A stretch of 64,000 nucleotides of DNA from an uncultured Candidatus Peribacteria bacterium (GCA_964618565.1 CAZUBA010000002.1:20029-84028); one strand, 5' to 3'. Positions 1 through 64,000 are shown, counted from the first letter of the stretch. Notes: generated from the sequence alone by a model not told the origin. Numbers and translations: made by a program.

Positions 1-1331
1 TTATCATTTGATTTATAGATATTATTTATCAATTGAGTGCTTCCTCCATCATAGAAAATTTTAATATCCTTTGGAATCAAGGGTTTTTTAAATTGATCCA
101 CTTCATCCTGCATCTCTAGAAGAAGATTAGCAACATCCTGAAGTCTTTGTAGCATGAAACACGGGAACAATATTTTTCATTTCCGATCATAAGCTTCATT
201 TATAATAACTGCTAACTTTGCTTTTTCAGCTTTTCTTTCCGCATGTTGTCTTCATCCATACGTGGACTCTATCTGAAAAAAATCATATTTGAAAGGCGGT
301 ATATCTGGCTTATTGAGATAAAGAGGATCGAAGAACCTTCACAAGTCTCAAGAAAATCCAAGTGTTATCTCTCATCATTTTCAATCATCGACTATCAGAG
401 TTGCAATGCAAGAACCGAATACATGCTCAGCTCTATGAAATACAAGCTTTACTCAAGGCACAATTTGGTTTTCTTTTTCAAATCTGGTTCATTTCGTCAT
501 ACTGAGAAGCTTGCTTACATCATCTGCAGTATAGAATATCCTGCTCTCAATAAGCTTCTTGGTATTGCTGAACATTCCTCCAAGTTGCTTTACATCAGGT
601 ATTCACGCAAGTCTGAATTGTGCTTCTATTTTATTTATTACTTCTTGAATTGCCTCGTTTGTTCTTATGTCTCTATTGTGCAAAAGCTGCTTTTTCAACT
701 TTCTATCATGGTCATTTAATTTTTGCTTCTTAAGAGTCTTATAAAGGATAGATAGAATTGATGCTTGCTCTTTAAGCATCAAACATTGTTTTTCCAGAAT
801 TCTAAGCCTCTTTTCAGCTTCCTTCTTCATTACATCAACTGAATCTTTCAGCATTATTTCAAGAAGATCACGTCAAACATGGGAAGTAAAAGCAACTCAT
901 TCAAAAGATTTTTTTGATGTTGTGACTATATTTCCATCAGTAATCTTATTGCTTCATGTTATCATCATAGGAGCGCGTCAGCAATGATCCATATGCGCAT
1001 GCGTAAATACCATTGCATCTATGCTCGCTGGACTGAAAGGCAGTACTTGATTCCTTTCAAAATCAGTCTCTCTTTGTCACTGAAAAATTCATAAATCGAT
1101 AACTATGCTTTTGCTATCATTTCAACTTCTCTTTATATCAATCCTTGTACAGGATCAAGTAACACCATCACTTCATCAAGGTAAGGTTATTTTGATATCA
1201 AGAAGTTCAGTCACTTGCTTGTTGACCTTATTGACTAAGGCATCCGTTTGTTCACACACCACTGCTTCACTTATTTCTTGAGTTGAAACTATGTCTCACT
1301 CTGGTAAAGCATTCTGAACTTCTCTACTCAT
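1..1331 (-). CDS. MBL-fold beta-CASP RNA-metabolising hydrolase (RNase J/CPSF73-like); C-terminus lies beyond the window edge
   Basis: ATG at 1331-1329. Frame is open to nt 1 when TGA=Gly (checked by triplets). Motifs FTHAHMDHCGRAP (HxHxDH) and IESTYGGR (beta-CASP). Confidence 0.75.
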
Positions 1332-1452
1332 AGTAATATTTTATAAAAATATGATTATCCTTCTCCTTAATGTATTGGCTAAGCTTAATTTAAATTTAAG
1401 AATCTTTGAGCATGTATTATCATATCGGATTATTCTATTCTTTATTTGATTT

Positions 1453-4400
1453 TTACTCTTTCTCCTTAATTGATTTCAATATCTCTAGCAATTCATCTTT
1501 TCTAAATCTTAATTCAAGAGAATCATTCTGTGAATCAAATGATTGTGAGCAAGAAGTATCCTTATCGTTAACAATTATGTAATCATTTTCAATAAGCAAT
1601 TTAGCATCATCTTTTGAAATCTTATATTTTGTACTTATGTATGCATCAAGCTGATCAGATTCAATGGATATTTCTCAAACAGGCTCATTGCCTTCTGATT
1701 TTCATTTTCTTTTAAGGCGATCGATAAATTCTTTTAGCTTATCTTTTTCAAAATAAGTATTGAGTTCATCTTTCTCGGCATCAAATATCTGCTCATTAAC
1801 TGCTAAGGCTCAATTCACTTTTATCTTATTGTTTTCAATTAGTAAATCTGCATCTTCAATAGGAATCTCAAACAAAAGGCTTATGTATTCTTTCAGATCA
1901 AACACACCAACCAGCTTGAGATCATCCTTTGCCTTGAGTGCTTTCAGGATATCATTCATCTCCGCTTTATTAAATAACAAGACAAGATCATCTTTTCTTG
2001 GATTATAAGACTGAAGATAGAATGTATTTTTGCCATTTACTCTTATGAGCTGATTATCTATAAGAAGCTTAGCATCTACTTTGGATACCTTAAGCATCTT
2101 GCTGATATGCAGATTCAGCTTAATGCTCTTACCTCATTTTCTGGATTTTTCAATTTTCTTCTCTAATTGGACATGTCTTTCATAGGCTTCTCATATCTCT
2201 TCAAATCTTTGCTTATCCGTATCGCTCATCCTTCTGTTTTGCGAGCTTCAGATAGGTGTATCATAGTGTTTCTTGTATGGGTTTGCCAAGAATTCTACGA
2301 TTCTAGGATCTTTTGAGAGGATTATGGTATCAACAAGATAATTCTTATCATCTTTATAGAATGTAAGTGTCTTAGGAATATCCTCCATATAGAACCTCTT
2401 AATAAGCCGAGGCAAGAAAATTGCAAGCAGTTTAGTGAATCTCACGATATTGAATTCTCATTTATCAGTTCAAGAATATGATTTTATCAGTTTCTTGACG
2501 CCATAATTGTTTTTGACAAGATATTCAGGAAGCCATAGGAAAGAATTTATATCTCTGAGTTTTTCTTTAGGAATATCATTTATAAGATCAATGATATTCA
2601 TTCATCCGAAATCATCTTGCAGATCATCTAATTCTCTAGGAGTAAAGCTTCTTCATTTCTTTTTTGTGATTTCCGCTTTCTTATCGAATACCTGATTAAG
2701 ATCCTTGAATTCACCATCGGTATGGGTATAGATAACCTCATTAAGCATAGACTCATCTACTTTTGATACGAAAAGAAGCAGAGGCGTATCCTCATTGCCA
2801 TCTACTCATCAGATAATAAACGGAAGTCAGACATATCTGTGTTTTTCATCTGCAAAAATCACAGAAGTTTTTGGCTTAATGAAATCACCCATTCCCTTAT
2901 TATGGAAAATATTAGCATCCTCCATGTATTCAAACAAATTATTAGGAATTCCATGTAGTATTGATTTAACTATATTTTCAAAATGCTTACTCTGATTTTT
3001 CTTGTCCTTGTTATTATGATAATTTATTTCATGTCAAGAATTTTCAAGCCTGACTTTAAGTATGTCTATCGTACCGAGTATTTCTAGGATTTTCTTTTGC
3101 TTGACTCAAATAGAGGTAAGATCTACAAGTTCAAAGAGCATCTTCTCTTTTCAATTCATAGCATATTCCTTAAAAAGATTCAATTCCTGTTTATTTACTC
3201 AAAATTCTATTAATTTAGCTATATCAGTATCTTTTAGGGGTTCTCTGGTTGTAATGAACTTGAACATTTCCCTTTGGGCGATCAAATCGGAATTTCTCTT
3301 ATATTTTTTAAGTACGAATTCTTTCCATGATTCATTCTTACCAAGAAATCATTTATGGGATATGATTGAACATATGTCTATCATATCTCCAGAACAATCC
3401 AACTTGAATGATGCCTTAAGCATCTTTCAAACAAATGGATCAAGTGGAAGTGTCAATAATTCCCTACCTAATTTAGTCGGTACATGATCTTCTCAGATAG
3501 CTCAAATCTTGAGCAGATTATCATAAGACAGTTGAATAAGATCAATATTGGGCTCATGTATAAAAATCCTTTTTCGTTCTGATTCATCCTTTGCTAATTC
3601 TCATTTCAATTCTTTCATCAAATCTTTTCAGATAGAGAGAGATAGTAAAATATATCTTTCTAATGTGACATCTTCTATTTCTCATGATGGGAAATCTGGC
3701 AGATCCTCATATTTGGTGTCATTTGCAAAGATTCAAAGTCATTCTCCTATTCTTCCAGCTCTTCCCGCTCATTGATCAGCCTCTGCTTTTGAAATGACTT
3801 CTACCCTTAATTCTGGAACTCATGTTTTTGAGTTTACTTTAAGGCTCTTCTTTAATCAGTTATCGACAACTGAATTGATATATGGTATAGTGAGGCTTTC
3901 TCTTGCAACATTTGTAGCTATTATGACCACAGTCTTATCTCAATGTTTCTGCATCAATCGTTTTTGCTCGTCAATAGGAAGTTCTGAGTGAAGCGGGAGG
4001 ATTTCATATTCTTCATCATTCAGATGCAATCTCAATTCTTCCATAGTACCTTCAATTGTCTTCTTTCATTCAACAAAAGCTAGTACATTTTTCTTGTTTT
4101 TAGCTTGATTTATTATACTATAGAGAAATTCTCAACCAGAGATATATTCGCGAGTCAACTTGTGCGGTCTTCATTCGATTTTGATAAGAGGGATTTTTGT
4201 GGATATATCTTTAAAATATTCAGTGATAAGCTCATAATCTATAGTTGCTGACATTAGGACAAGTTTTGTCCGATCTTTAACATTCTTTTTAAGTTGCTCA
4301 AAGATAAAATCTTTCATCATCTTAAGAAGAAACTCTGTGGGAACGCTATATGTATGGAGTTCATCCATTATAAGTATATCAGGATTGATTCATGTGAAGA

Positions 4401-4902
4401 ACTGCCTTAATAACTGAAGTCAATCTGTCACATAAAGCAGTTCAGAAAAATTTGATGATTTTGTTTCTTTTCAGGTCCTATATCAGACTTTATGTCAAAT
4501 TGAATAATAAGGATCCCCTGTAGTCGCAAATAAGCCTGTACAAGTAAATTCACATGCATTTAAGGCTGCGATGATTCTCGGTTCCGATATGACAACCTTT
4601 AAGCCTTTTCATAAAAAAAGCTTAGGAGTTTCTGTTGTCTTGCCTGATCATGTCTTACCGTTTATAACAGTAATTAATTCTGAGTGAACGCTATCTATTA
4701 TCTCCTTTGTCTTATCTCCAGCACTTTTGTTATGAAAAGGCAAATCATATATTGACTTGATGATCTGATCCCTTTCTTCTCTGTGAATGATTTTTCATTC
4801 AACATCCATAATGCTTCAATCTGTTTGGATTCAAGGCGTGTAGATGCTTCAGTTGAATTGAAATCAAGGAAGTACGTTTGAATCGTTATTTGATCAAGGC
4901 AT
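1453..4902 (-). CDS. DEAH-box ATP-dependent helicase, HrpA/HrpB-like, with C-terminal S4-like repeats
   Basis: 1149-codon frame with no TAA/TAG (checked by triplets). Motifs GKTGSGKT (one Gly is TGA), IIMDELH, MSAT, IATNVARESLTIP, QGAGRAGR. TAA at 1455-1453. Confidence 0.8.
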
Positions 4903-5044
4903 TAAATTCATTTTTTGCATTTATGATTTACATTTTTTTTATACTCATTTTTGTATGCTTGTCAATACTTTTGACCAAGAAATTTTTCTTTAAAAAAAAC
5001 TAATTTCAGACTTTTAGAGCATCTGAAATAATTGATTTCTTAAA

Positions 5045-6507: not shown

Positions 6508-6510
6508 TTA

Positions 6511-7023
6511 ATGGCCAAAGACAATAAACGGATTAATGAAGACATCAAGGCATCCAGAGTAAGCGTTATAAGCGCAACCTGAGAACAGCTTTGAGTATTG
6601 CCCATAGAAAAAGCTCTAGAGCTGGCAGAAGCATCAGAAATGGATTTAGTTGAGATTTGAGAACAAGATTGAGTGGTACTTACCAAAATATTGGACTACT
6701 GAAAACTTCTATTCAAACAACAGAAGAATATCTCAAAAGCAAAAACCAACTCCAAAAAAACTGAACTTAAGACAATCAGATTGACATATAGGATTTGAGA
6801 TCATGACCTTGATATAAGAAGAAATCAATCAATAAAATTCGCAAAAGACTGACATCCGCTAAAAGTAGTGTTGATGTTAAAATGAAGAGAAAACCAATAT
6901 GCCGCACAGGCACAAGAAAAAGTTACAGAGTTCGTCAATTCTCTAGAAGAATTATACAAACTTGACTGAAGGGTTACAAAAGCCGGAAACACATTCTATG
7001 CAATGCTGCATCCGAAAAAATAA
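6511..7023 (+). CDS. infC: translation initiation factor IF-3
   Basis: RINEDIKASRVSVISATGEQLGV...LDYGKLLF...LKGRE. The conserved GEQLG and DYGK glycines are TGA codons. Confidence 0.9.
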
Positions 7024-7309: not shown

Positions 7310-7654
7310 ATGACAAGAGTAAAGAGAGGTCTTATGACTCGCAAAAGACACAACAACCTACTTGCAAAAGTTAAAGGTTTCAGAATGATGAACGGAAATG
7401 TTTTCTCTAGAGCAAAAAATGCTCTTGCAAAAGCATGAACTAATGCGTACATCGGTAGAAAACTTAAGAAAAGAGATTTCAGAAGCCTTTGGACTATAAG
7501 AATCAATACAGCTGTTAGACAATATGATATTAACTATTCGACTTTCATCAACCTTCTATACAAGAAGAATGTAAAAATCGATAGGAAAGCTCTTTCTAAT
7601 CTAGCTATTGCTTATCCAGAAGTTTTCAAGAATATCGTTGATTTCGTGAAATAA
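7310..7654 (+). CDS. rplT: 50S ribosomal protein L20
   Basis: MTRVKRGLMTRKRHNNLLAKVKGF...KRDFRSLWTIRINTA. A TGA sits where E. coli L20 has Gly (AVIKAGQYAY). Confidence 0.92.
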
Positions 7655-13865: not shown

Positions 13866-14942
13866 TTAAGTGTATATTGCATTCATATTGGCTTTATCTT
13901 GCAAAAATTGAGGCATATTTTGGGCTGTTATAAAAGTCTGGAACCTATTGCAATAATTCATTACTAAATTAATGTGCTGGTCATCAAGCTCCGAAAAGAT
14001 ATCATCTAAAAGTATCACTATATTTTCTGAATGGAATTTCTTATAGAACTCGATCTCAAGGAATTTTAATCCAATAAGTATGCTTTTATTCTCCCCTCTT
14101 GATAGGCATTCTTCAGAACTTACGTCACTTTTTGCAGTCTTGACCATAAATTGGAAATCATCAAGATGAGGTCAAATATATGTATAACCTGTAATTATGT
14201 CCCTATCGGTATTTTTTTCGATATAAGAGGAAATTGAATTCTCAAGATTATTGAAATCGACTTTAGTCTTATAATTGAAATCAAGCTTATATCTGTTTTC
14301 TAAAAAATCTTCTACCACTGACATATTCGCTTCAATGAAATCAAGAAATTGCTTCCTGTGCGAATAATATTGGCTGGCAATCCTCACGAAAGCTGAATTC
14401 CAGAACTTCAGATCCTCTTTTGTTGCTTTTCATTCTTGGATTCACTTGAGAAGCTTATTCCTATTCCTTAAGACCTTAGAATAATCAGATCTGATTTTTG
14501 AAAATGATATAGAAGACAAAGTGCAAACCTCATCCAAAAAATCCCTTCTGAGCGTAGGTCAAAGATATATTATATTCATTTCAAGCGGTGCGAAGAAGAC
14601 TGCGATATGTTTTGTGTTTTCCAAATATTTAGGCCTAGTGCTTTTGGTTCAGTTAAGCAGGAATGAAGATTTTTGGGTTTTTGAGTCATATGTGACTTTT
14701 GGGGTTTTTGAAAGGTAATCTTCTCAGATTTCTCATTTCACAAGAAAACTTTCACCAAAAAAATTTACCAATCTTTCTATATTCTGAGATTGGTAAACTC
14801 TGGTATTGAGAAGCAGATATATCGCCTCCAGGATATTCGTCTTACCTGAGCCGTTTGCTCAGATAATCAGATTCATATCGGAAAAGTCGAATCTGGAATC
14901 CTTATGGATCTTGAAATCATGAAGCTCTAAACTTCGAAGCAT
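13866..14942 (-). CDS. recF: DNA replication/repair protein RecF
   Basis: 358 aa. Motifs LELHDFKIH, GANGSGKTNILEAIY (first Gly is TGA), LSRGE, ILLDDIFSELD. Frame checked by triplets. Confidence 0.88.
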
Positions 14943-27194: not shown

Positions 27195-27791
27195 ATGAGA
27201 AAAATCATTATTCTGACTTTCATGACGCTCGACGGGGTCATGCAGGCGCCTGGCGGACCCGAAGAAGATACATCAAACGGTTTCAAATACGGAGGGTGGA
27301 CTGTCCCCTATTTCGATGAATTCGCTGGGAAAGCCATGGAAGAACAGATGAAGCAACCTTTCAGTTTGCTCCTGGGCAGAAAGACTTTTGAGATATTCGC
27401 ATCTTACTGGCCGATGCATGCGAATGAATGGCCCGGCATTAACGAGTCCACCAAGTATGTGGTTTCTAATACGCTTACAAAGCATGATTGGGAAAATTCT
27501 ATCTTCATATCGGGTGATGTGGTAAAGAAAATAAAAGAACTGAAAAATCAAGCCGGTCCCGATATGCACGTGTATGGTAGCAGCAATCTCATACAGACAC
27601 TTTTGAAGCATGATCTCGCAGATGAGCTTTGGCTCAAGATATTCCCAATCACACTTGGTTCGGGAAAACGTTTATTTGGTGAGGGTACTATTCCTGCCGC
27701 TTTCACGCTTGTGGAATCCAAGACATCGCCCAGCGGGGTTATCATTGCTTCTTATGAGCGTGCCGGAGAAGTTGAAACGGGGTCTTTTTAG
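27195..27791 (+). CDS. dihydrofolate-reductase-like protein (RibD C-terminal domain family)
   Basis: MRKIIILTFMTLDGVMQAPGGPEED...YGSSNLIQTLLKHDLADELWLKIFPITLGSGKRLF. GC-rich with no TGA codon. TAG stop. Confidence 0.85.
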   Translation: MRKIIILTFMTLDGVMQAPGGPEEDTSNGFKYGGWTVPYFDEFAGKAMEEQMKQPFSLLLGRKTFEIFASYWPMHANEWPGINESTKYVVSNTLTKHDWENSIFISGDVVKKIKELKNQAGPDMHVYGSSNLIQTLLKHDLADELWLKIFPITLGSGKRLFGEGTIPAAFTLVESKTSPSGVIIASYERAGEVETGSF

Positions 27792-28840: not shown

Positions 28841-31800
28841 ATGAAATTTAACGCAATGGAAGAAGCTTTAATTAAGGCTTGATTAGCCGAATGAGCTAAA
28901 ACAAATCTAGGAATCGGACAAAATACTCAATCAATAAAAATAGTAATTAACTCTATAGTTACAACAACAAATGATTTTGAATCTATCTTTTTTTGAAATA
29001 AAGATATTATTAAGCCTTTGATTCTGTCAGATGATTGTGAGATAAGTAGTCCTAATACTTCAATTCCCTGTACAGAATCATGAATAACAAAGGAAATAAT
29101 CTTCAATCCTTTAAATAATCAAAATCTAATAAAACAAAGACAGGAAATAATTAGCTTCTTATTGAGTGATAGCATAAGTTTAGAAGAATTTATAAGAAAT
29201 AAAAACAGAGGTTATGCTTTAGGCGAAAGTCTTGAACATATATTTGAAAGACCGGACAAAGAATGAAGAAGAGAGATTCTAGGCTCTATTTATCACCACT
29301 ATAAAGAATTATGAATAGAATTTAATAGAGAAAAAATTCTAGAAGATTTAGAAGAAAATCGTTATAACAAGCTAGAAATATTTATTAAATATCAAAAATG
29401 GTCTGATACCGAAATAATATCAAGAATTGAATTAATTAAAAATGAGTGATTTAGTGGTGTTTTTGAAAGAACTCTTTGGGATCTTGTGAATATTGCAGAT
29501 ATAAAAATAAACCTTACAATTTTTGGAACATTCTTAAAAGAAATCAAGCATCCTGTATTTTTAGGTTTATGATATAAGCTTGATAATATTATAAGTGATT
29601 GAGTAGATAGATGATGCTTCCCTACTATAGAAGAATTAGTGACGGCGATAAGAAGTTGAGATAAAAAAAGATTTGATATAATAAAAGCTTTATCAAAAGA
29701 ATTATCTGAATTCACTTCAAAAATTTGAGCTATCCTATGATTTGCAAATCTAGTAAAAAGAGATTCTTATTCCCCAGTTCAGAATCTTGGATTAAAAAAC
29801 GTAAAACAAACTTATGATAACGGGTGGAGTTTTGCAAGGCAGAAATGTAAAAATGATCGGGATAAAAAAACAAAAGACCAGGTACGAAATTGACTTAAAA
29901 AAGATCATGATGTTACTGTTTTAAGTTGAAGCAATATGTCATGAAAATCATTCTTCCTTTTGCAGAACTTCTATATGCAATTATTGGCTCAATCATTCTG
30001 ATATGTGCCAGCAGAAAATCCTTCATTCAGAGTTTTTGACAAGATAGTTTTCGTTGATAGAGCTTCTACAGATTCATTCCATAATTTAAGCGCCTTTTGA
30101 AAGGAAATCGAGAATTGGAAAAAGATTTTAGATTGAGATGTTTCAAATATGATATTACTCTCAGATGAGGCTTTTTCAACTACCTCAGCAGAAGATCAGG
30201 CAATTCTTTTAGAGAAAACCTGAGATCATATTACTAGATCATGAGGTAAGATTGTGCTAGCCAATCATAATGATGCTTATATGAGAAGCAAAGCATGACA
30301 GGATTCGTTTGGTTTCTATCATTTTGACACAGGTTTCAAATCTAATTGAGATATTGATTTCTATCATACAATAAAAGAATGAATAGATGAATCGAAATCA
30401 TTTGAAGTTGCTCATAGGATGTGATTCCCAAAAGATGCTTTAGAATCTGCAATAAGATATATGAAATGAGAATCTGTTGAGATTACTGAGATTCAGAAAC
30501 ATTTATGAGTATTAGAAAGATATACTGAAGTAGAAAGAAATAAACAAAAGAGTGAAACTAGAAGTTTTATGAGATTGATGCCATGAGGCGATGAAATAAT
30601 TAAAAATGAAAATTGAGGTCATAGAAGTCATAATTTATACTGGAGATACACCATAGATCATACTGAAAGGGATGACTATTGAAATAATAGATGATGAAGA
30701 AAAGTTGAAAAAAGACCTGAATTTACCAGTCCATTCACTCTTCTAAGTGAAGACAGGGATTTCCATAATTGATTTAATCCTGGAAATTTTAGTTGGTTAC
30801 ATAGCTGAGAAAGTACGAGATATATTCAACAAATACTTTTACATTACTCAAGTTCTGATTCAAAAGAAATATTTGAAAGACAAAATATGTTTGAAGAAAT
30901 CTCAAAAGAATGAGCAGATCAGAAACTAGAAGCAATATTATGACAGATTTATGAATTCATATTTTGAATGAATTTTAGATATGATGAAAAGTTTTATAAA
31001 TCATTCAACAGAATAATAATCGGCTGATTATATGCAGAACTTAATGAATGACATAATGTACTGGATAGGTCTTGAGTAATATTGTCATTTATATGAATGA
31101 TTAAATGAGTAATGAAGTTATTGAATAGTGAAATAAATGATTTTGATATTGAAAAAATTGAAAAAGAGATAATTTCATTTTATAAACTTATAAAGGATTT
31201 GCGTGTACATGAAGAAAAAGGAAGAGATGAAGTACATAAATTATATAAAAGAGAAGATTGGGACAGAGAAGCTTATTGGTGAAATCATAAAGAAAAAAGA
31301 TTAAATATAATAAATGAGTCTTGAATTTCTTTTGTAAACGCAGAAATGGATGAAGATGAGATTAAGAAAATATTATATAAAAAAATTAAGGAATATGCGA
31401 CAGAGACTCATTCTAGAGCGACTGATTTGTTAATTCCTCTATCTATAACAGATTTTGAAACTGAAAAAATCCAAGAAGCTTTTAAGGATGCTTTTGAATA
31501 TGCTAAAACCGTTGATTGGTATTCTTGAATATGAATCAAGGAAATCTGACACATCATGTCATTAACTAATAAATGAAATCCAATTAAAGATTTTGAAAAT
31601 TACCTAAAAAGTTTTGATTCGGTTCATTTGCATCAAATTGCTAATTATTTTGATAATGTTTTTTGAATGTTATTTTGAGATATAAGGTCTTGAATTGATT
31701 TCTTTGAAAAATTAAAAACACAAATTAACTCAAAAGCTTCAGAAAAAATTAAAGATGATGAGGATGAAGAAATATTTTCTGTAAGCAGAAGGTCTAAGTG

Positions 31801-32575
31801 ATTTGATTTCTTACCACATTATAGTTTTGAAGATAGAGATAAATTATATCATGAATTTAGGAAATTATTTTCATTATTCACGTTTGCAAGACTTATTAGA
31901 GAACATGGCTATGCAAAGGTAAATTTTTCTGGAAATTGAAAACTGGATCTTACTAATGCCTGGAGCATGACAAAACCAAAAGATGAACAAATCAGAAATA
32001 GTATTATATTTGATGAAAATGAAAGAATAAAACTGATTTCTTGAACTAATATGTCATGAAAGACGTTTTACTTAAAACAGCTTATTTGGAATATTCTTTG
32101 TGCTCAAGCAACTTGATTTTGTCCTTCAGATTCTGCAACAATGCCAGTTTTCGATAATATCGTTTATTTAGATAGAGTTAATTGAAAAACAAAAGAAGAA
32201 TTAAGCGCGTTCTGAAATGAAGTCGAATACTGGAAAAAAGTATTTTGAGTTTGAATTGACTCCAAAATGAACATATTTGCATTTGATGAAACTTTCTCAA
32301 CAACTTCAGCAAAATATCAAACAGCACTTACATATTGAGTAAATGAGGATTTATTGAAGAAATGACAATTTGTAGCCATAGCTTCACATAGTCATGATTT
32401 CTTGAGAGATTTTAATGATACAAATTTAAATAAATCAAGAACATATCATTTCAAAACTCATATTTGAGAAGATTGACAAATAGCTTTTGATTATGAAATA
32501 GAAGATTGACACGCACCTTCTCAGGCAATTGCAGTAGCAAAAAAACTTTGAATCAGAGAAGATATTTTAAATTAA
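28841..32575 (+). CDS. tandem MutS-related ATPase (two MutS domain-V-like modules in one 1244-aa ORF)
   Basis: No TAA/TAG in frame across 3735 nt (every line checked). Module 1 has LSGSNMSGKS...LLSDEAFSTTS. Module 2 has ISGTNMSGKT...FAFDETFSTTS. Confidence 0.7.
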
Positions 32576-38542: not shown

Positions 38543-38870
38543 ACTCGAGTTTTACTAATTAAAATGTTATTCTCTTTTACATATTTATATTCAATAGTCA
38601 AAAGTATTTTGGATTTTAAGATGCCTCAAGAAAATATTGACTTAATGAGATAAATAAATAAAAGGTATTAATTGATTTATTTTTTAAACAAAAAAGCCAA
38701 CTTAATAAAAAATAAAATAATAAGTTGTTTTCAAAGGAGATTAAAGATATCGAACAAAAACAAATATTTCTCTAGCTGGGAGAAGAAAGGAATGATGGAA
38801 ATTTCAGCAGTCGCGGGGAAACTATCTTTAGGTGCAACTAACAGAATCAAAAACCGAAAGGAGAATGAGT

Positions 38871-39212
38871 ATGTCAAGAATCTGCGGCTTAGTAGCAATT
38901 TTCGTTTTCTGTCTGATCCTGCCTTTGCAGGCAATCGCCGGCGAGCTTGAGGACGGGAAAATCAGCAATGGCCTGAAAAATGCGCCGGATGTGTCCATCC
39001 TTCAGAGCGAACCATCAGAGCCGATCGTGGTTGCAGTAGGAAACGCCTGGGACTACGCATCCGGAACCATAATGCAGCCGTGCGGTTGCTGGGGATACAT
39101 CCCTCCTTCAACCGCAGTCGAGCCCAAGTGCTTCAGTGGCTACGTAGTGCTTGCCGCATGTAACACCTATTGCTCAGGGGGAGGATACTCATATGGCTAC
39201 AGATGCATGTAG
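38871..39212 (+). CDS. secreted cysteine-rich small protein (GC-rich, TGA-free)
   Basis: RBS aaggag lies 7 nt upstream. Signal peptide MSRICGLVAIFVFCLILPLQAIA. C-terminal CGCWGY...C...C...C...C. TAG stop. Confidence 0.7.
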   Translation: MSRICGLVAIFVFCLILPLQAIAGELEDGKISNGLKNAPDVSILQSEPSEPIVVAVGNAWDYASGTIMQPCGCWGYIPPSTAVEPKCFSGYVVLAACNTYCSGGGYSYGYRCM

Positions 39213-39459: not shown

Positions 39460-39912
39460 ATGAAAAATGAAATAATAGAGAGATTAAGGGCGACTGAATG
39501 CGAGTGGCTGGAACTAGAAGATTCCATGGAAATTGATCAAGAAAACCGTAAGCCTGCCTCCTCGGAATGCCCTGAAACAATTATTGAGTTGACCGAAAGA
39601 ACAAGAGAAAGGACTCTTCGACAACTAGCCCTGATTGCCTGACTATCGGAATTGTTACCAAAAAGGCAGAAAGATGATCTCAATCCTCCAGATGTATTCG
39701 ACAGCATAGAATATATTTCAGCACAGGCGAAAAAATTACAAAAGCAGATACTTGATGCAGTGGCTAGTGATGTTAAGCAGATACTAGACAATGTAATGTT
39801 TAAAGCGTCATTGCTTTGATTACCAAGATGAATCAAAGATGGAGAAACAAGATTTTCAACTATTATTACAGAAATAGAAGCGCTTTGAGAAGACGAAAAT
39901 ATTCCTTCCTAA
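39460..39912 (+). CDS. 150-aa protein of unknown family, paralog A
   Basis: Frame checked. 4 TGA-Gly codons. Shares IIERLRATECEW and LLGLPRGIKDGETRFSTIITEIE with the 51750..52202 product. Confidence 0.65.
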
Positions 39913-44415: not shown

Positions 44416-45126
44416 ATGGATACCCGAAATTCTAAGATTTTAGGATGGTCAGTATTTGCTTTAACTCTTTTGGCGTACATCCCTCTTGGTCTCGGCAGCT
44501 GGAATAAACCTGCAGAATTCAATATGCCTAGCTTTCTGGCATGGGTTCTATTGGCAGGACAATTCCTTTATGCAACCCACTCTCAAGGTTTTGATGGTTG
44601 GAGGATGCCCTTCGGATACTTCATCGGCAACATAGGAGTTGTGATAGTCATGTTGTATCGAGGCGGATATACGATGAATCTGACATTTACTGAGCATATC
44701 CTATTCGGAGGTACGATTCTTGTAGGAACAATATGGTTTATATGCTACCAGCGTTCGAAGAAAAGCAATCCTAGGATACTATACTTCGGAAACATCCTCG
44801 TCGATATGATATCCTTCTACCCGCAAATTAAGCAATTTGCAGGAGTGCATGATCCTGTCAGCCTCAAGACACTATTAGGCTGGGCAATGTTTCTCCTTAT
44901 CGCAGTCATTAATGTATTCGTGGTAGAAAGATTCATGAAGAAGATAGCAATGAAAGATAGAGAATATGAATTTGCCTTTAATCGAAAAAAGAGAGTCATG
45001 TCGATTTTGGAGGAAAGCCTATTCTCAATCGAGCAATCAATCTTCATCGGTGGCCTGCTCGTATTAATGCTGTTTTGAAAACATGAACTGATTAGTCCTC
45101 GCTCTAGCGAGGACTTTTCTTATTAA
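44416..45126 (+). CDS. multi-pass membrane protein with PQ-loop-like motif (GC-rich); extended 16 codons past a fossil TGA stop
   Basis: RBS aggagg. The 220-codon TGA-free ORF contains ISFYPQIKQF. The TGA at 45076-78 would read as Gly in this host. The next stop is TAA at 45124-26. Confidence 0.7.
45094..45118 (+). terminator. rho-independent terminator lying inside the read-through extension
   Basis: Stem agtcctcgc/gcgaggact with loop tcta, followed by TTTT. Confidence 0.7.
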
Positions 45127-48679: not shown

Positions 48680-50485
48680 TTATAGGCTCGTATCATATTC
48701 CTCTAAAAATCAATCTTTTTGAAAATCCACCATTTCCTTATAGGCTTTATTTTTATTGTAAAGGGAATCATGGGATCATGAATCGATTACTTCTCAATTT
48801 TCAAGAAGGAATATTATATCTGAGTTCTTTATAGTTGATAGCCTGTGGGCGATGACTATTGAAGTCCTTCATTTCATGAGGTTGTTCAAAGATTTCTGGA
48901 TGATGCTTTCTGTTTTGGAATCCAGAGCTGAAGTCGGCTCATCAAGGATCAAGATATCAGGATCTCTTAATATGGCTCTTGCGATTGAAAGCCTTTGCCT
49001 TTCTCATCAAGAAAGCTTAAGTCACTTTTCACCTACTTCAGTTTCAAAACCAGCCTCCAGCTTCTCTATGAAATCAAGAATCTCCGCCTTTTTACAAGCC
49101 ATTCTTACTTCTTCTAATGTAGCGTCTTCTTTAATATATTTAAGGTTGCTTAAGATCGTCTCATTAAATACTGTAGTATCTTGAAATACTGCCGCAAATT
49201 TCCCCCTGTAGCTATCAAGAGTATAATCTTTGATATTGATTCAATCAACAATCACTTCTCAAAACTCAGTCTCATAGAATCTTGTCACAAGATTTGATAT
49301 TGTCGTCTTTCAAGATCAGGTATGTCATACAAATGCGACTTTTTGTCATTTTTTTATTTCCAGATTTAGATTTTTAAGTATTTCTCTGTCGCTTTTTTTG
49401 TAATTGAAAGTTATATCTTTTAATACTATATTGTTTTTTAATCAAGAGAATTCGATTTTTCATTCATTCAATTCTTTCGGAGAATCGGTAATTTGTTTTG
49501 TTTTATGAAAATCAGCAAGATCCCTTATGACGGATTGATATGATGATAAGAGACTATCTATGGGTCATGATATCCTTCATGAAATATAGATGAAAACAAG
49601 AAGCTCACCTATCGTCAGGAATCATTTTACTACAAAGAATACTCAAAAAATCATAACAGAAATCTTAGAGAAAGCTTGAACTCATTTTAATATGGTATTT
49701 AAAATATTCCATAAATAGTTGGATGAGGTCTGAATTTTCATGCTTTTTGAAAAATATGATTCAAGTGTTTCATTTTCTTGTTTCTCTTTTGCAAAAAGCT
49801 TTATGATTCCGATATTATTAAGAGCATCATTTAGCCGCTGATAACTCCTATTCCATGCACTATAGGCTTCCTTCTGTATATTAAAGACCTTGCCTCATAT
49901 CTTCAATGTTGCATATATGCTTATTGGCATGAATACCAAAGAAACAAGAGTCATCTTCCAATTAATATAAAGTCAAAATGAAAATAAGCTTATGAAAATC
50001 AATATCTGCGGCAATATCTTATTGAGAAAATTATGTCAAAAGCTCCAGAAAGCATCCGTGCCTTTGTTAAAGATATTTTGTTGAGTTCATGGATTTGTAT
50101 TGACAAAATCGTTATAAGGCAATAATAAAAAGCTTTTTCATATTTTAACAGCATACTTTGCCCAGTCCAAATGCATGATTCGATCGGTGTAATATTCATA
50201 TCATCATTGGGCAAGGATTAAAATTACAGATATTATCCCCCATATGATCGCTAAATAGATAAAATTTGATTTTATTGTTTCGTACGATATTTTATCCGTT
50301 GAAAACTCTTGAATATTATCAATGAATAATTTATAAAAATAAGGCTCTGCAAGAAGAAATGCCGTATTTATCAAAAGCAATAAAAATAACCACCAGAAAT
50401 TTTTTCTGATATGAAGATAATTATTGTAAATATCTTTTATAAGTTCCCATTTTGGAATTGCATGTGTGTCTTTTTCTTCAGTCAT
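48680..50485 (-). CDS. ABC exporter, fused permease/ATPase (MsbA-like)
   Basis: 601 aa. Motifs [42 protein letters not shown]. Frame checked. Confidence 0.85.
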
Positions 50486-50767: not shown

Positions 50768-51028
50768 AATAATGATGTTATGAAACAATAATTATATCCT
50801 TAGCTATTCAATTATCCAATTAATTTATGAATAAAAATTCAAATTGTACAAGATACGCAGTTGAATTTGCAATCATGAATTGCTTCATAATATGATTTGA
50901 CATAATAATTAATAAAAATATAAATACTGAAACAAAAAGGTTTAAAAAGGAGGAGGTCTGGTTAAAGGAAAAGCTATGCGATGATTGGTTCATTAACCTT
51001 TACGGGCAGTTTTTGAAGGGGGTGCTTC

Positions 51029-51574
51029 ATGGACAAGAAAGCGTGGGATGAGTTTTTTCAAGCCAAGGAAATGTCCAGGTTCATGCTGGAAAACAAATTC
51101 AGGAATCTGGAAGCCATGATGAAAGAGGAGCTCGAAACGAGGGAAACTTACGAAGGGCTTCGGCAATCCAGCTTCCAATTCGAGTTCAAGCTGAAGCCCT
51201 TGGCAAAAATGGGGAGCCTCATCACAGACGTGAAGTCGATCTACTACTGCATCATCGGGAAATTCAACCACGATAAGAGCTTCGAACACTGCAAAGCTAT
51301 GATTGCTGAATTTGAGAAGAAGCTCAAGGAGCTCATCTACTTCGAAGAATGCTGCAAGATGAAGAAGTTCCTCAGGGCCGATGCCCAGTACGAGGAGATG
51401 GAAGCGTTGGGGCTCTTCGAGCTCGGCGACAAAGAACTCGACAAAATCTCTCTGCTGAGGGGTCTCGTCATGCGGTGCGCCTGCTGCTTCAACTTCATGG
51501 AAAGCTCTTCGCTGATCGAGGAATACGAAGGGCTCATGGTGAAAATCCGCCTTTATGAACCAGTTCCCGCGTAG
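51029..51574 (+). CDS. GC-rich, TGA-free, Cys-rich helical protein (181 aa), unknown family
   Basis: Intact in the standard code. G-rich RBS (gaaggggg). TAG stop followed by a strong terminator. Strong GC3 bias, unlike the neighbouring genes. Confidence 0.7.
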   Translation: MDKKAWDEFFQAKEMSRFMLENKFRNLEAMMKEELETRETYEGLRQSSFQFEFKLKPLAKMGSLITDVKSIYYCIIGKFNHDKSFEHCKAMIAEFEKKLKELIYFEECCKMKKFLRADAQYEEMEALGLFELGDKELDKISLLRGLVMRCACCFNFMESSSLIEEYEGLMVKIRLYEPVPA

Positions 51575-51749: not shown

Positions 51750-52202
51750 ATGGAAGTCCAAATTGTCAAAAGACTTAAAGAGGCTGAAGAAAAATGGCTC
51801 CTGTCAAATGCTGCTATTGAAAATATAAATTTGCAGATAGTCCAGCTGTTGGAGAAAAGGCCTAGAGAAAGAAGAAAGATGGTATTGACAATACAAAAGC
51901 AAACTAAAGACAAAATCATTGAGCAATTGAATATCATACTTTTATTGCAGAAAATCATATCACAAGAAACAATTATGTCTATTCCGGAAAGCATATTTTC
52001 GGATGTGAATTGCCTCACTGAAGAGGCTAAGAAAATACTCGATCTCATAGAAGACACTGACTCTGATGCTCTGGATGAATTGCTTGAAAAGATAACTTTC
52101 AGAGTTTTTTTCTTAGGGGTTCCTATTTGAGCAAAAGGAAGTGAAACAAGATTCTCTGAAATGATTTCAAAAATTGAATCGAATTTATCAAATATTGATT
52201 AA
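51750..52202 (+). CDS. 150-aa protein of unknown family, paralog B
   Basis: The track ORF continues through TGA 52128-30 to TAA 52200-02. Motifs IVKRLKEAEEKW and FLGVPIGAKGSETRFSEMISKIE. Confidence 0.65.
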
Positions 52203-55133: not shown

Positions 55134-58100
55134 TTAAATATCTTCTTTTGAAAAGTTAATGGAATCATGGGCTGCTTTTTTACCGAAAGCATAGAAAACT
55201 CAAGGCCTTATGAACAGCTCAACTATAGTCGAAAGTATTATTCAGCCGAATATCACTGTTGCAAGCGGATTCAAGAACTCTTTTCATGTCGCATCTCAGG
55301 CAATAAGAAGAGGAATAAGTGCGAGCGAAGCAGTCAAGGCAGTCATCATTACAGGAGTCACTCTTTCGAGTGATCATTTTATTACCATTTCTTCTGACCA
55401 TTCCATTTTATCAACCTTAAGCAGATGCAGATAATGGGATAACAGCATTATTCCATTTCTTGATACGATTCAAATAAGAGAAATGAATCAGACAAGATGA
55501 GCAGTAGAAACAACATTTCAAGTTATTGCAATTGCAATCATTCAGCCTAAGAATGCAGTAAATACATCAAGGAATATCTGTCACACCAGAAGCATGCTTC
55601 TGAAATGCCAATACAATATTGCAGTTACTCATATAATCACAATTATGCTTATTAAAAATAGTCTTTGGCTAGCCTCTTTCTGATTCTTATAATCTCATTC
55701 GTAAGAAACGAAATATCCATCGGGCATTTTGATATTGCCGATATTGGCTTTTATTTCTTCCACAACTGACACTACATCCCTATCCTTTACGAATCAGCTT
55801 ATTATTATTCTTCTTTGAGCTCAATCATGGCTTATTGCATTCTGTCACTCGGTCTTCTGGATTACAGAAAGCTGATTGAGCGTTACCGGTTTTTCATATC
55901 ATGATGGAACAAGAGTATTTCCAAGAGCAGCCATTTCTCATTTCCAAGAAGGATCATATTTTACGATTATGGGATATCTTTCGTTTCAATCCAATACTTC
56001 TGTAGCCTGCATTCACATGAAAGACATTTCAAGCTGCTCATTCATCATTCAAATATTGACTCAATTATACAATGAAGCATCTCTATCGGTATAAATTGCA
56101 ACTTGAGGAACTTTTAATTCTTGCTCGACTTGCGCATTTATGACTCATGGAGTTTTTTTCATGGCCGCAAGAACATTTTGTGCTTGAGTCTGAAGAGTGT
56201 CCAGATCTTTTCAATATAATTTTAATACTATCGGAGCTCTGACTCATGATATTAACATCTGCAATCTATGCGTTATAGGTTGTCATAATGTAAATAATGC
56301 CTTTCATTTATATGAATCATATATTGCTTGAATATCATTTTCTATATCTTTCTTTTTAGCGATATCCGTGTCTATCCAGATTTCGAATTCTGAGCTATTC
56401 ACTCCACTGGCATGAGCGTCAGCATCTGCCCTACCCACCGTAGCAGCAAAAGATTTGACTCATTTTACATTAAGGACTTTTGCACTGACTTCCTTAACCA
56501 TATTCTTAGTGTACTCAAGCGAGCTTCAAATAGGAGCATACATCATTGTGGTATATGTCGGTTCATTGAAAGTTGGTAGTCATTCTTTTCAAGCTTGCAT
56601 GAATAATGTCACAGTTATCACAATGCTTGAAAGTGCTCATATCAATATTTTCTTTGGGTGTTTCAAACTGAAATGAATCGGAAATAAAGCCCAATTTTTA
56701 ACTTTTTTGATCATTGCAGTATCGTCTCTCTCAAATCAAATAGGAAGATTCTTATTCTCTTCCGGATCAAATTTAAGCTTATCGCTTCTTCTTTGGATAT
56801 ATTTCGGCAAAAGATAATAGCATAATACCGGCACTATCGTCAGAGAAACAAATAATGAAGAAATGAGCGATAGGATATATGCCGTTCAGATCGGAGCCAA
56901 TAATTTACCATCCACTCAAGGTAAGAACAGTAGCGGCAAGAATACGACTACCACAAGAATAGTTGCATAAACTATAGAATTCCTGACCTCAGAAGAGGCT
57001 TCATATATCACAGTTAAAGATTTCCTCCTTTGATCTGACGGCAGAAGTGAATTCTCTCTCAAGCGCCTGAAGACATTCTCAACATCGACAATCGCATCAT
57101 CAACCAATTCTCATATCGCAACAACAAGTCAACCCAGTGTCATGACATTTATTCATAGTCACATGAATTTGAATATTATGAATGTTATGAGAATTGAAAT
57201 AGGTATTGCCGTAAGAGTAATAGCAGTAGTTCTTACATTCATCAAGAAAAGGCTTAAGATTATCAGAACCATTATGGCAGAATCCCTTAATGCTTCTTCA
57301 ACATTGCTAAGTCATCATTCGATGAACCATTGCTGCTTGAATATATCTGATGTAAGGATGGTATCTTTTGGCATATTCTTCTGAAGATCTTCAAAAGCCG
57401 CATCTATATTCTTGGTCAGTTCAAGAGTATTCACATCAGGCTGTTTGATAATCCTGAGAATAACTCAGGGCTCTCAAGCAATAAGCGCATCTCATCTCCT
57501 ATTCGGATCCGGTGCAAATATGACATCAGCAACATCTCAGACAGAAATTGTCTTTAGGTCTGAATAATTTACACCTGCACCCCCTCCTCACATAGAACCT
57601 CCTCAGGCAATCTGAGCCTGTCATAGGGGCACGTTTTTAACAACAACCTTCTTTATCTCACTTGCAAGATTTGTTCTTCAGATTATACGTATAGGGGATT
57701 CCTTTGATCATTCGATCAGAAATCCTCATCATCTGTTTTCGTTCGATTGCTCAATAGATTTCAGAACCTCATCGATAGTTATTCCGTATTGGATAAGCTT
57801 CTCAGGCTTCACTAGGACTTGATATTGTTTTGCTTCTCATCACATCACCAGAACATTCGCAACTCATGGAATAGTAAGAAGCCTTTGCCTTATTGTCCAA
57901 TCTGCAATGCTTCTTAATTCCATAGGAGAAACGGTTCATTTCGGGGAAGATAAGCCTCACCACACTATCTCTCAAAGAAGTGAAGTGGTAGGGCCTAGAG
58001 TCGTTTTGGAATTTTTAGGCAGATTTATAGATTGAAGTTTTTCTGTAATTATCTGTCTGTTTCTGTATATGTCACTTCACCAATCGAACTCTACATTGAT

Positions 58101-58376
58101 TATTCAGAGTCAGATTGAACTGACACTTCTTATTGAAGTTATTCATGGAGAACCATTTATTCATCTTTCAATAGGAAAAGTGACAAGATTTTCAATCTCT
58201 TCTGGACTTAATCATTCTTTTTCTGCAAATATCGTAACTGTAGGTCTATTCAGATCAGGCAATACATCAATAGGCAACTTAGTCAAAGTGAAGCCTCACC
58301 ATAAGAGAAGCACGACATATACAGCAACAATCAAAAGCCTATTTTTCAAACAGAACTTAATTATATCATTTAGCAT
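55134..58376 (-). CDS. heavy-metal efflux RND transporter, CusA/CzcA family
   Basis: 1080 aa. Every line checked for in-frame TAA/TAG. Motifs [12 protein letters not shown] and [22 protein letters not shown]. Confidence 0.9.
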
Positions 58377-60551: not shown

Positions 60552-60591
60552 AATATTAATTTAAGATAATAATTTTGCTTTATTCTTGAGA

Positions 60592-61848: not shown

Positions 61849-61908
61849 TTCATAATCGCATAATCGATAACATGATGTTACGATAAGGAAAGGAAAATAT
61901 TGCATAAA

Positions 61909-62043: not shown

Positions 62044-62060
62044 TCAGGACAGAAATTTCA

Positions 62061-62095
62061 AAGATAAACTATCCTTACGGACAGTTTATCTTTTT
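62061..62095 (+). terminator. rho-independent terminator
   Basis: 10-bp stem aagataaact/agtttatctt followed by TTTTT. Confidence 0.55.
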
Positions 62096-62136
62096 AAGAT
62101 TTTTTTATTGATAAAGATGCAATGAAATAAGCGGAT

Positions 62137-63438
62137 CTATGGAAAAATCCTTTTCGGATCTCTAGGCATGAGAATCATTTCTTTGATTGTCTCAAATCAT
62201 AGCATCTGCTTGAATAATCTGGCAAATCAGAATCAGAATCATCCGTGTGGAGGTATTCAATGCTTAAAGGCTTCAAGATAATGACGGAATCATTCGACTC
62301 ACATTCATTTTTCAATGATTTTGCTTCTGAGAATATCATGTCGATGCTCTCTTTGTGCTCAAGAAGTTATCTCAAGTCATTTATAAACAAGATCGAATCA
62401 TGTGGAATACGGGCTTTCCCCATCTTTTGACATAGTATAGAATGCTCTGACGGATGAGGGATACTCTGTAATGTACAAGAAATCATGCCCATATTCCTTC
62501 TTTGCATATTCCGCAAGTTTCTTTTCTCACTCAGAGCTCATATCTTCCCCTTCTCAAATCAATATTGAGAATTCTTTCTCCAATATTTCTACGCACTCTC
62601 TGAATTTCATTGTAGGAAATGGCAGAGTTGGCACTTCTATTTCCAATCAATATAGTTCTCTGACTTTTTCTCCAAATTCCTCCTTTATGGCAGCAATTGT
62701 GTAAACGAGCATTTCAGATTCTAGTTCCAGAATCTCATGATAAGAGCTTATCGGTCACATCTCAATATCAAGCATAGTTATCTCTGTCACATGCCGAGAG
62801 GTGAAGGAGGGATCAGCCCTGAAGGCAGGTGCTACTTCCAATACCTTTTCAAATCATGCGGCGATTGCCATTTGTTTGTAGATTTGAGGAGATTGGGCAA
62901 GATAGGCTTTTTTATCGAAATATTCCATTTCAAACAGTTCAGCTCATCATTCCGAAGAAGTTCAAATGATTTTCGGAGTGTGTATTTCCATGAATCATCT
63001 TTTATGGAAGAATTCCCTTACTTTAAGATCAAAGCATGACATCATTTCAAATGCAAGCATAATCTTTGGTTCTCGCAGGCTTAAGTGCCTATGGTCAAGC
63101 CGTTCTGAAATAGATGGGTATCATTCTCATTTCCAAGAAATCGGGAGCTCTTCCTGTGCATATGAAAGCACTTCAATGTGTTCTGCGATAAGTTCCATTG
63201 AATGTAATTTTATCTCTTCCTTATATTGCATTACTCAAGTGACTTCAATGAAAGATTCCAATCTGAATTCAATTTTCTCAAATTTCTCCTTTTCTATGAA
63301 GATTTGTATGAATTCTGTCTTCTGCCTCAATATCAGGAATATGTATTTCTTATGTTCGCGGATGATATCTATAAATCATGATATCATGACTTCTCAACTA
63401 GTTTTTGAAGAGATTATTTCTCTTATGGTTGTTTTCAT
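62137..63438 (-). CDS. aspS: aspartyl-tRNA synthetase, archaeal/eukaryal type (class IIb)
   Basis: 433 aa. Motifs FRADPSFTSRHVTEITMLDIE (motif 2) and PPHGGFGFGFARL (motif 3). Frame checked. Confidence 0.85.
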
Positions 63439-63792
63439 AAATTTAAATATTAAGAAATGAAATTAAATTCTATAAACATCCGTTTATGATAATGAATCTA
63501 TTTATCCGCAAGCGGATTATTCAGATGCCAGAATTTATATTGCATCCTGAGAAATATCTTCAGATCGATTTTCTTCATAAGGTTTTGAAGTTAAAATTAT
63601 TTAAAAAAATCCCCGCTTTTTCAATTAGCAGGGATTTTCAATTTGTATTGAAAAAGAGCCACTAATTGTTTAGCAGGGAATTATTATTATTTGATGTAGA
63701 AAAAGCTTTAAACATTTTTCAAAAGTTATATAAGTACGGATAGGATAGCGAAATTTATTTTTTTGTCAAAAAAATCTGCCAGAAGATAAAAT

Positions 63793-64000
63793 TTATTTTA
63801 ACAGGATCTTAATCGCTTCTTTTATCTTAATCTCAAATCCTTCATCTATATTCAAAACCATTTGGCCATGACGATCTGATTCTTCAATAAAATATTTTCC
63901 ATATTCACATATCATATCTGCAATTTTCCGATAAGTCTCGTCATTGAGAGTTTTTGCGATTATCCAGTCATTCGGAGTAGAGCTATTTTTGATATTTCGG
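63793..64000 (-). CDS. hypothetical protein, C-terminal part only (N-terminus beyond window)
   Basis: Open frame from the window edge to TAA 63795-63793. Confidence 0.45.
   Translation of the reverse strand, partial: RNIKNSSTPNDWIIAKTLNDETYRKIADMICEYGKYFIEESDRHGQMVLNIDEGFEIKIKEAIKILLK

Follow-up and report, generated by a model that had tools for sequence, protein, structure and literature searches.

TGA read as glycine (NCBI code 25), with apparent loss of release factor 2, in a genome of probable Gracilibacteria lineage

The stretch of DNA examined here, 64,000 nucleotides from one contig of an uncultured bacterium and hereafter called the window, raises the question of whether TGA is a sense codon in the genome it comes from and, if so, which amino acid it specifies. 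Under the standard code (table 11), not a single stop-to-stop frame of the window attains 300 aa, and the longest extends over 243 aa. Reading TAG as sense leaves the number of frames of at least 300 aa at zero and reading TAA as sense raises it to one, while 24 appear when TGA is sense, the longest being of 1244 aa. Re-calling of genes by table, as greedy non-overlapping open reading frames (ORFs) of at least 80 aa, similarly showed coding density to increase from 25% of the window (median ORF of 106 aa, longest of 225 aa) to 88% (median of 252 aa, longest of 1244 aa) solely when TGA is sense, with all resulting ORFs terminating at TAA or TAG. In-frame codons summed over 54 ORFs called with TGA as sense comprise 723 TGA and 445 GGN, a count that leaves out the open-ended ORF at 3-1331 (minus strand) with 21 further TGA, and Pfam domains span such codons end to end, as ACR_tran does over the 64 TGA of a CusA/CzcA-like pump (Table 1). 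A preliminary description of this DNA had reported the same appearance of long genes ending at TAA or TAG. Its statement that almost no standard-code ORF exceeds about 100 aa was too strong, 41 frames of at least 100 aa being present. Its further statement that the window is readable only with TGA as glycine does not extend to four GC-rich genes with none or one TGA.

Table 1. Features of the window considered in this work; x denotes a TGA codon within a motif.
Feature	Position	Strand	Length and codons	Remarks
Whole window	1..64000 (contig C2:20029-84028)			gene-dense only with TGA as sense
Helicase	1453..4920	-	1155 aa, 46 TGA	Walker A GKT-x-SGKT, TGA 4648-4650
Initiation factor IF3	6511..7023	+	9 TGA	
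Ribosomal protein L20	7310..7654	+		TGA 7436-7438 opposite conserved Gly
RecF	13866..14942	-		Walker A x-ANGSGKT, first Gly is TGA 14859-14861
RibD_C-family gene	27195..27791	+	0 TGA, 19 GGN	GC 46%, standard-code readable
MutS-domain protein	28841..32575	+	1244 aa, 66 TGA	two P-loops
Cys-rich ORF	38832..39212	+	126 aa, no TGA	GC-rich
Paralogue A	39460..39912	+	150 aa	
Membrane protein	44416..45126	+	19 GGN, single TGA (45076-78, codon 221)	GC-rich
ABC exporter	48680..50485	-		Walker A x-HT-x-S-x-KT, all three Gly are TGA: 49325-27, 49316-18, 49310-12
Cys-rich ORF	51029..51574	+	181 aa, no TGA	enclosing frame 50981-51574, GC3 0.71
Paralogue B	51750-52202		150 aa	
CusA/CzcA-like RND pump	55134..58376	-	1080 aa, 64 in-frame TGA	Pfam ACR_tran 1-1020 of 1021, E 1.6e-217
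AspRS, archaeal-type non-discriminating	62137..63438	-	433 aa, 25 TGA	

Individual motifs were then inspected for the residue that TGA replaces. The TGA codons that the preliminary description had placed on glycines of the helicase, RecF and ABC exporter Walker A motifs were all found there (Table 1), as well as two in each P-loop of the MutS-domain protein, x-SNMS-x-KS (TGA 29927-29 and 29942-44) and x-TNMS-x-KT (TGA 32042-44 and 32057-59). In IF3, the motifs T-TGA-EQL-TGA (6580-6582 and 6592-6594) and DY-TGA-K (6700-6702) are likewise present; five of its nine TGA lie opposite glycine in the Thermus thermophilus factor (6580, 6592, 6658, 6850 and 6883) and five in that of Escherichia coli (6580, 6592, 6700, 6850 and 6883), with tryptophan opposite none of the nine in either protein. 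The codon in the AKA-TGA motif of L20, said to correspond to glycine in E. coli, aligns with the Gly of IKAGQYAY or FAAGNYAY in solved L20 chains of the PDB, and never with tryptophan in that alignment. Finally, TGA 39817-19 of paralogue A does face GGG 52116-18 of paralogue B, as had been noted, and TGA 39829-31 faces TGA 52128-30; nonetheless, the TGA/GGG pair alone is weak evidence, since these proteins are just 26% identical.

Columns occupied by TGA were evaluated in an alignment of the pump with 103 homologues sharing no more than 42% identity with it, used as the main test, and in a second one of AspRS with 105 homologues, none of them above 44% identity. At the 64 TGA columns of the pump, glycine accounts for 62% of the cells and is the majority residue in 42 columns, tryptophan having a mean column frequency of 0.6%; GGN columns of the same alignment contain 59% glycine. 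Very similar values, 58% glycine and 0.6% tryptophan, were obtained for the 25 TGA columns of AspRS. Jointly, glycine is the majority residue in 58 of the 89 columns and tryptophan in none, while TGA columns with at least 90% of a single residue are distributed as 38 for glycine, one for serine and none for tryptophan. Comparison of 26 translation proteins with those of E. coli K-12 placed glycine opposite 74 of 101 TGA and opposite 220 of 293 GGN codons, and tryptophan opposite no TGA. About a third of the TGA columns hold residues other than glycine (A, S, N, E), and so do GGN columns. At the sequence level, TGA behaves as GGN does.

These data bear directly on the possibility that TGA encodes tryptophan, as in code 4 of Mycoplasmatales, Hodgkinia, Zinderia, Nasuia, Stammera and some Eggerthellaceae, several of these users being insect endosymbionts. 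Long frames are obtained equally well with code 4 and with code 25, and the public proteins of the nearest relative have been translated with the former. Database proteins of relatives do carry W at the positions concerned, at 63 of the 64 pump TGA columns in P0001 and similarly in P0122 and P0124-P0131, one relative's record being even titled 'uncultured bacterium (gcode 4)'. Such W residues, however, reflect the translation choice of the pipelines and are not evidence. An annotation-free comparison with orthologues of the nearest relative (206 pairs, 85,148 aligned codons) showed TGA unchanged at 3195 of 4872 positions; among the 1677 changed ones, 1055 became GGN, including 175 GGC that demand a two-base change, against only 18 that became TGG. 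Amino acid composition points in the same direction, since code 4 would leave the proteome with 5.4% Trp and 2.4% Gly. Genome-wide, TGA and GGN occur at 46.6 and 23.5 per 1000 codons, together a normal 7.0% of glycine, and TGG represents 0.7% of codons. Considering alignment columns, codon exchange, composition and the tRNA identities described below, code 4 is ruled out, and its probability must be regarded as extremely small. The preference of the preliminary description for glycine (table 25) over tryptophan (table 4) is thus upheld by columns, codon exchange, composition and tRNA identity alike.

The machinery expected for reading TGA as glycine was sought in the complete assembly (1.76 Mb, 33% GC, 64 contigs, 95% complete, 8.9% contamination), in which ARAGORN detected only 30 tRNAs. 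One of them, at C27:4621-4699 (minus strand) and 64 nt away from a tRNA-Gly(GCC), has the anticodon UCA, and its G1:C72, C2:G71, G3:C70 and U73 constitute the full glycine identity set according to the rule of Shulgina and Eddy (PMC8629427). On the contrary, tRNA-Trp conserves the CCA anticodon and G73. Of 121 genomes belonging to the same GTDB order, 113 possess the tRNA(UCA) in full length with 82-99% identity; it keeps the anticodon in the 14 of 14 checked, and exhibits compensatory pairs in three stems while the identity elements are invariant. The genome encodes one class-I release factor, RF1, scoring 438.6 bits against the prfA profile, above its cut-off, and 238 against prfB, below the required 370; it displays a P-E-T motif and no SPF, and its GGQ is itself encoded G-TGA-Q. 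Profile searches found no RF2 (prfB) gene in this 95% complete assembly, nor in any of 15 sampled genomes of the order, while RF1 was found in all 41 sampled. The absence of RF2 is not to be taken as absolute, because the assembly is a fragmented metagenome-assembled genome of the completeness and contamination given above, although a missed gene is unlikely given its order-wide absence. The GlyRS (C30:16445-17821) is single and of the dimeric (alpha2) type, no glyQ being found in the genome. The tRNA with glycine identity and the apparent loss of prfB were thus both encountered, and all three checks suggested in the preliminary description (coding density, residues at TGA columns, machinery) speak in favour of table 25.

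ARAGORN labels the tRNA(UCA) as 'tRNA-SeC', which would fit TGA still acting as a stop or specifying selenocysteine, with the window being a set of fragmented pseudogenes or of programmed read-through products. Nevertheless, the acceptor stem of this tRNA has the usual 7 bp and its variable arm is short, unlike the architecture of tRNA-Sec, and no selA was found in the genome, which also lacks a detectable RF2. In-frame TGA, moreover, makes up 4.7% of codons, appears on all 64 contigs, lies inside essential genes (IF3, L20, RF1, EF-Tu, GlyRS) and is conserved in position between orthologues. Insertion by SelA/SelB/SECIS shares with the present case UGA read as sense and the ARAGORN label, but here decoding would be genome-wide and context-free, by an ordinary cloverleaf. 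Density and conservation of in-frame TGA thus rule out selenocysteine, read-through and pseudogenes, leaving them a vanishing probability.

A further alternative is that code 25 is accompanied by another change, such as CGA and CGG encoding tryptophan. Both codons are rare, 1.5 and 0.9 per 1000, and CGG=Trp has been reported in some Gracilibacteria, with CGA/CGG=Trp in Absconditabacteria (Shulgina and Eddy 2021, PMC8629427). With that extended code the genome shares the UGA=Gly background and the rarity of CGA and CGG, but here these codons are exchanged between orthologues with AGA, AGG and CGN, the replacement being an Arg codon for 108 of 169 changed CGA and 78 of 131 changed CGG, with Lys and Gln next and TGG not being among the replacements listed. 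The tRNA(UCG) agrees with an Arg-type identity, having A73, no G73 and a D-loop like that of other Arg tRNAs. Among codons represented by 12 or more columns of the pump alignment, none departed from its standard meaning, the only differing top residues corresponding to TTT (11 columns) and TGT (one column). Neither orthologue exchanges nor tRNA(UCG) therefore give any sign of the additional change, which is considered very unlikely.

Regarding the lineage, the closest genome in public databases bears the label 'Candidatus Peribacteria', a group reported to use the standard code. Since its own pump gene contains 64 in-frame TGA, this is treated as a problem of labelling. Named AspRS relatives are 'uncultured bacterium (gcode 4)' (81% identity) and 'Candidatus Gracilibacteria bacterium' (74%), which fits the association of table 25 with Gracilibacteria/Absconditabacteria made in the preliminary description. 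Campbell in 2013 and Rinke in 2013 are said to have described code 25 in Gracilibacteria (BD1-5/GN02) and Absconditabacteria (SR1). For BD1-5, proteomics showed UGA=Gly, with 97 Gly-unique peptides versus 3 Trp (Hanke 2014, PMC4032931), and prfB was missing from all genomes then available (Sieber 2019, PMC6851277). Because RF2 is present in 112 of 151 genomes of the GTDB class Gracilibacteria, a small order flagged as anomalous for code 25 within that class (GCA-2401425 or JAYELJ01; PMC13695967) was also considered as the source; the idea was dropped, since the order to which the genome belongs comprises three families and over 120 species, which carry the tRNA(UCA), and the named relatives are BD1-5. 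Within this order, as sampled above, tRNA(UCA) and RF2 loss are common to the whole.

Taken together, the genome almost certainly uses NCBI code 25, with a dedicated tRNA-Gly(UCA) and RF2 lost, and probably belongs to the BD1-5/Gracilibacteria lineage (Patescibacteria/CPR); the initial observation is confirmed and its table-25 interpretation supported. UGA would be read as glycine by this dedicated tRNA, presumably charged by the single dimeric GlyRS despite A36. Loss of RF2 would remove termination at UGA, leaving UAA and UAG, both read by RF1, as the probable sole terminators (1100 TAA and 238 TAG genome-wide). UGG would still be tryptophan via tRNA-Trp(CCA), wobble at U34 of the tRNA(UCA) probably being restricted so that UGG is not misread, and CGA and CGG would stay arginine, no further codon being reassigned. 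Code 4 systems resemble this arrangement in the codon captured, RF2 loss, a UCA-anticodon tRNA and AT bias, but here the amino acid is Gly instead of Trp and the tRNA with anticodon UCA originates in the Gly identity class. With code 25 of Gracilibacteria and Absconditabacteria it shares UGA=Gly, the tRNA-Gly(UCA) identity set, loss of prfB with prfA kept, low GC and a small CPR genome. There is no difference in kind, although among code-25 genomes the present one is at the large end and makes heavy use of TGA (66% of Gly codons). The recoding is already well documented for the lineage and is not new.

TGA use is, nonetheless, uneven. The few TGA-free GC-rich genes (Table 1) are likely imports from standard-code donors. 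The orthologue of the RibD_C-family gene in the nearest relative shows one internal GGN-to-TGA change, and the only TGA of the GC-rich membrane protein sits 15 sense codons ahead of its TAA/TAG stop. The TGA share of Gly codons drops from the genome-wide value to 24% in 25 translation-apparatus genes, while the share of GGT there is 45% instead of 9% (p = 3e-60). No TGA was seen in an S-layer-like protein (56 GGN) or in L7/L12, and only one in a type IV pilin. Depending on the genome within the order, RF1 contains between 0 and 17 TGA and EF-Tu between 0 and 24, RF1 being taken as the low-expression control because archaeal-type AspRS, found in just 4 of 41 genomes, was unsuitable. A tentative explanation, perhaps somewhat short of even chances, is that TGA, once captured, continues to carry a cost and to spread, mutation from GGN to TGA being opposed by translational selection. 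Such selection could come from slow decoding by tRNA(UCA), of which a single copy was found, or from misreading as Trp by tRNA-Trp(CCA). No published report of expression-linked TGA avoidance was found in the literature searched, which did not include Campbell 2013.

The value of these observations is practical and not conceptual: gene calls, domain searches and structure predictions for this genome must use table 25. Table 11 loses three-quarters of the coding sequence, while table 4, evidently used by several public pipelines for the closest relatives, makes about 4.7% of residues wrong, including P-loop glycines and the glycine of the RF1 GGQ motif. In addition, expression-linked avoidance of TGA offers a modest handle on the cost of a captured stop codon.

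The window's stop-to-stop reading frames reach 300 aa or more in no case with table 11 (longest, 243 aa) or with TAG as sense (259 aa), and in a single case with TAA as sense (334 aa), while 24 such frames, the longest of 1244 aa, appear when TGA is read as sense. When measured on a greedily chosen set of ORFs (80 aa or longer, none overlapping), coverage rises from 25% of the window with table 11 (median 106 aa) to 88% with TGA as sense (median 252 aa), a difference in coding density in agreement with the preliminary description. Thus, TGA alone produces this effect, which chance falls far short of explaining. Pfam domains of window proteins run unbroken across TGA codons; ACR_tran is matched over positions 1-1020 of 1021 across the 64 TGA of the CusA-like RND pump (E 1.6e-217), with Glyco_hydro_3, tRNA-synt_2, ABC_tran, IF3_N/IF3_C, and SMC_N being likewise continuous. 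In-frame TGA is used by all 64 contigs of the genome, a MAG of 1.76 Mb and 33% GC, 95% complete with 8.9% contamination, in which the window occupies C2:20029-84028.

The preliminary description had held the window to be readable only with TGA as glycine (table 25) rather than tryptophan (table 4). All motifs it quoted were located, at the kind of position it described, as was the TGA (39817) opposite GGG (52116) in two 150-aa paralogues, weak taken alone since these share 26% identity. The residue was then evaluated by three independent kinds of test, namely standard-code homologues, codon exchange between orthologues, and composition. For the first, TGA was masked as X ahead of alignment. 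Glycine occupies 62% of the cells in the TGA columns of the pump, being the majority residue in 42 of them, and 59% in the GGN columns of the same gene, with tryptophan at 0.6% by mean column frequency (103 homologues, each of at most 42% identity). The 25 TGA columns of AspRS show 58% glycine and 0.6% tryptophan (105 homologues, at most 44% identity). Among TGA columns with at least 90% of one residue, 38 are glycine, one serine, and none tryptophan. Across 26 annotated ribosomal proteins and translation factors of E. coli K-12, glycine stands at 74 of 101 TGA positions and tryptophan at none, glycine facing GGN at 220 of 293 positions. In PDB alignments, glycine faces 5/9 TGA codons of IF3 for T. 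thermophilus and E. coli chains alike, as well as the TGA of L20. The expected dominance of glycine in TGA columns is therefore borne out.

Codon exchange was compared free of annotation in 206 orthologue pairs with the nearest relative's genome (85,148 aligned codons). TGA was kept 3195 times and altered 1677 times, of which 1055 changes led to GGN (175 of these to GGC, two base substitutions away) and just 18 to TGG, despite TGG lying a single transition away. Regarding composition, TGA (46.6 per 1000 codons) and GGN (23.5 per 1000) together give 7.0% glycine, a normal value, while TGA as tryptophan would give a proteome with 5.4% Trp and 2.4% Gly. The reading of TGA as glycine is thus supported, and the original observation confirmed.

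The decoding machinery concurs with the remaining expectation, a UCA-anticodon tRNA-Gly and loss of prfB, to the extent that a 95%-complete MAG allows. ARAGORN detected a tRNA(UCA) 64 nt from tRNA-Gly(GCC), mislabelling it as SeC; selA was not found in the genome. This tRNA bears G1:C72, C2:G71, G3:C70, and U73, exactly the glycine-identity rule of Shulgina & Eddy (PMC8629427), and the sole tRNA-Trp has anticodon CCA and G73. ARAGORN draws the 79-nt tRNA(UCA) with a D-loop of 10 nt and an anticodon stem of 6 bp. GlyRS is of the dimeric type, with glyQ not found in the genome; it would charge tRNA(UCA) despite A36, and U34 would be modified so that UGG is not read. A single class-I release factor was found, scoring 438.6 bits, above the prfA cut-off, and carrying the P-E-T motif without SPF; against the prfB profile this same factor reached 238 bits versus a 370 cut-off, indicating no RF2 in the genome. 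In RF1, the universal GGQ motif has its second glycine encoded by TGA (G-TGA-Q; SxAGxQHVNKT), so RF1 itself needs TGA to be glycine.

Coordinates of the features considered (window positions, or genome contig, C, and position)
Feature	Location	Strand	Remarks
CusA-like RND pump	55134-58376	-	64 TGA
AspRS	62137-63438	-	25 TGA
RibD_C family	27195-27791		0 TGA, 19 GGN
GC-rich gene	38832-39212		0 or 1 TGA
GC-rich gene	44416-45126		one TGA, 15 sense codons ahead of stop
GC-rich gene	51029-51574		0 or 1 TGA
tRNA(UCA)	C27:4621-4699	-	
RF1	C7:26846-27919	-	10 TGA
EF-Tu	C45:390-1583		TGA-avoiding
Ribosomal-protein clusters	C31/C40		TGA-avoiding
Further loci	C20:244-2568, C8:33685-34068, C6:647-1438		TGA-avoiding

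A further change of code was also considered, given that CGA/CGG are reported as Trp in Absconditabacteria, and CGG as Trp in some Gracilibacteria (PMC8629427). No such change was seen here in codon exchange, tRNA, or the pump alignment. Arg codons account for 108 of 169 exchanges of CGA and 78 of 131 of CGG, Lys and Gln coming next, with TGG not among the listed replacements; tRNA(UCG) has A73 and resembles other Arg tRNAs. In the pump alignment every codon with at least 12 columns keeps its standard meaning, a different top residue appearing only for TTT (11 columns) and TGT (1 column). The extension is therefore rejected: unlike in Absconditabacteria, CGA and CGG behave as Arg, and plain table 25 is retained.

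This recoding is shared by the lineage. Of 121 genomes sampled from the same GTDB order, 113 have a full-length tRNA(UCA) (82-99% identity), with anticodon tca in 14/14 checked, base-pair compensation in three stems (acceptor, anticodon, and T), and invariant identity elements and anticodon loop; across the order, the conservation of this tRNA exceeds that of most proteins. RF1 occurs in 41/41 and RF2 in 0/15 sampled genomes of the order, while the class-level survey found RF2 in 112/151. Outside the order, RF2 is also missing from three or more families of the class (f14, f17, f27), which may be the Absconditabacterales together with the small orders that the gTranslate paper singles out (PMC13695967). 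The AspRS is a short archaeal-type non-discriminating enzyme of 433 aa, detected in just 4/41 order genomes at E <= 1e-40, so a different AspRS must serve most relatives. The AspRS of the nearest relative is an NCBI record named 'uncultured bacterium (gcode 4)' (81%), which we take to be the BD1-5 bin from Rifle in Wrighton 2012, and the next named relative is 'Candidatus Gracilibacteria bacterium' (74%). BD1-5 was first sampled at Rifle (PMC6851277). The nearest genome (L003 / G151) is labelled 'Candidatus Peribacteria', yet has 64 in-frame TGA in its pump gene; the label looks like a naming artefact. Proteomic data have validated UGA as Gly in BD1-5, with 97 peptides specific for Gly versus 3 for Trp (PMC4032931), prfB was lost from all BD1-5 genomes then available (PMC6851277), and GTDB-based tools assign table 25 to BD1-5 and Absconditabacterales (PMC13695967). 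The finding thus holds, and describes a recoding that is already known, with nothing new in kind, in what is probably a known lineage.

The standard code suffices to read four GC-rich window genes with many GGN. Of the 1125 genes in the genome, 49 are depleted in TGA (P < 1e-4), their GC being 40.6% versus 33.5%. Part of this set was probably imported from donors that use the standard code; in the nearest relative, one internal GGN codon of the RibD_C orthologue has already changed to TGA. Another part is highly expressed native genes, such as those for an S-layer-like protein (0 TGA, 56 GGN), L7/L12 (0 TGA), and type IV pilin (one TGA). In 25 translation-apparatus genes TGA makes up 24% of Gly codons versus 66% in the genome, and GGT 45% versus 9% (p = 3e-60), other codon families being biased in the same direction; GGT is the preferred Gly codon in these genes. 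TGA load varies widely among genomes of the order (G022-G257) sharing tRNA(UCA): RF1 has 0 to 17 TGA and EF-Tu 0 to 24, the EF-Tu gene lacking TGA altogether in 24 of 38 relatives. The degree to which genomes use TGA is thus still evolving.

The closest relatives' proteins stand in public databases as code-4 translations: W occupies 63 of the 64 TGA columns in one such record, P0001, with P0122 and P0124-P0131 being similar. All other findings in this genome depend on table 25 as an essential premise.
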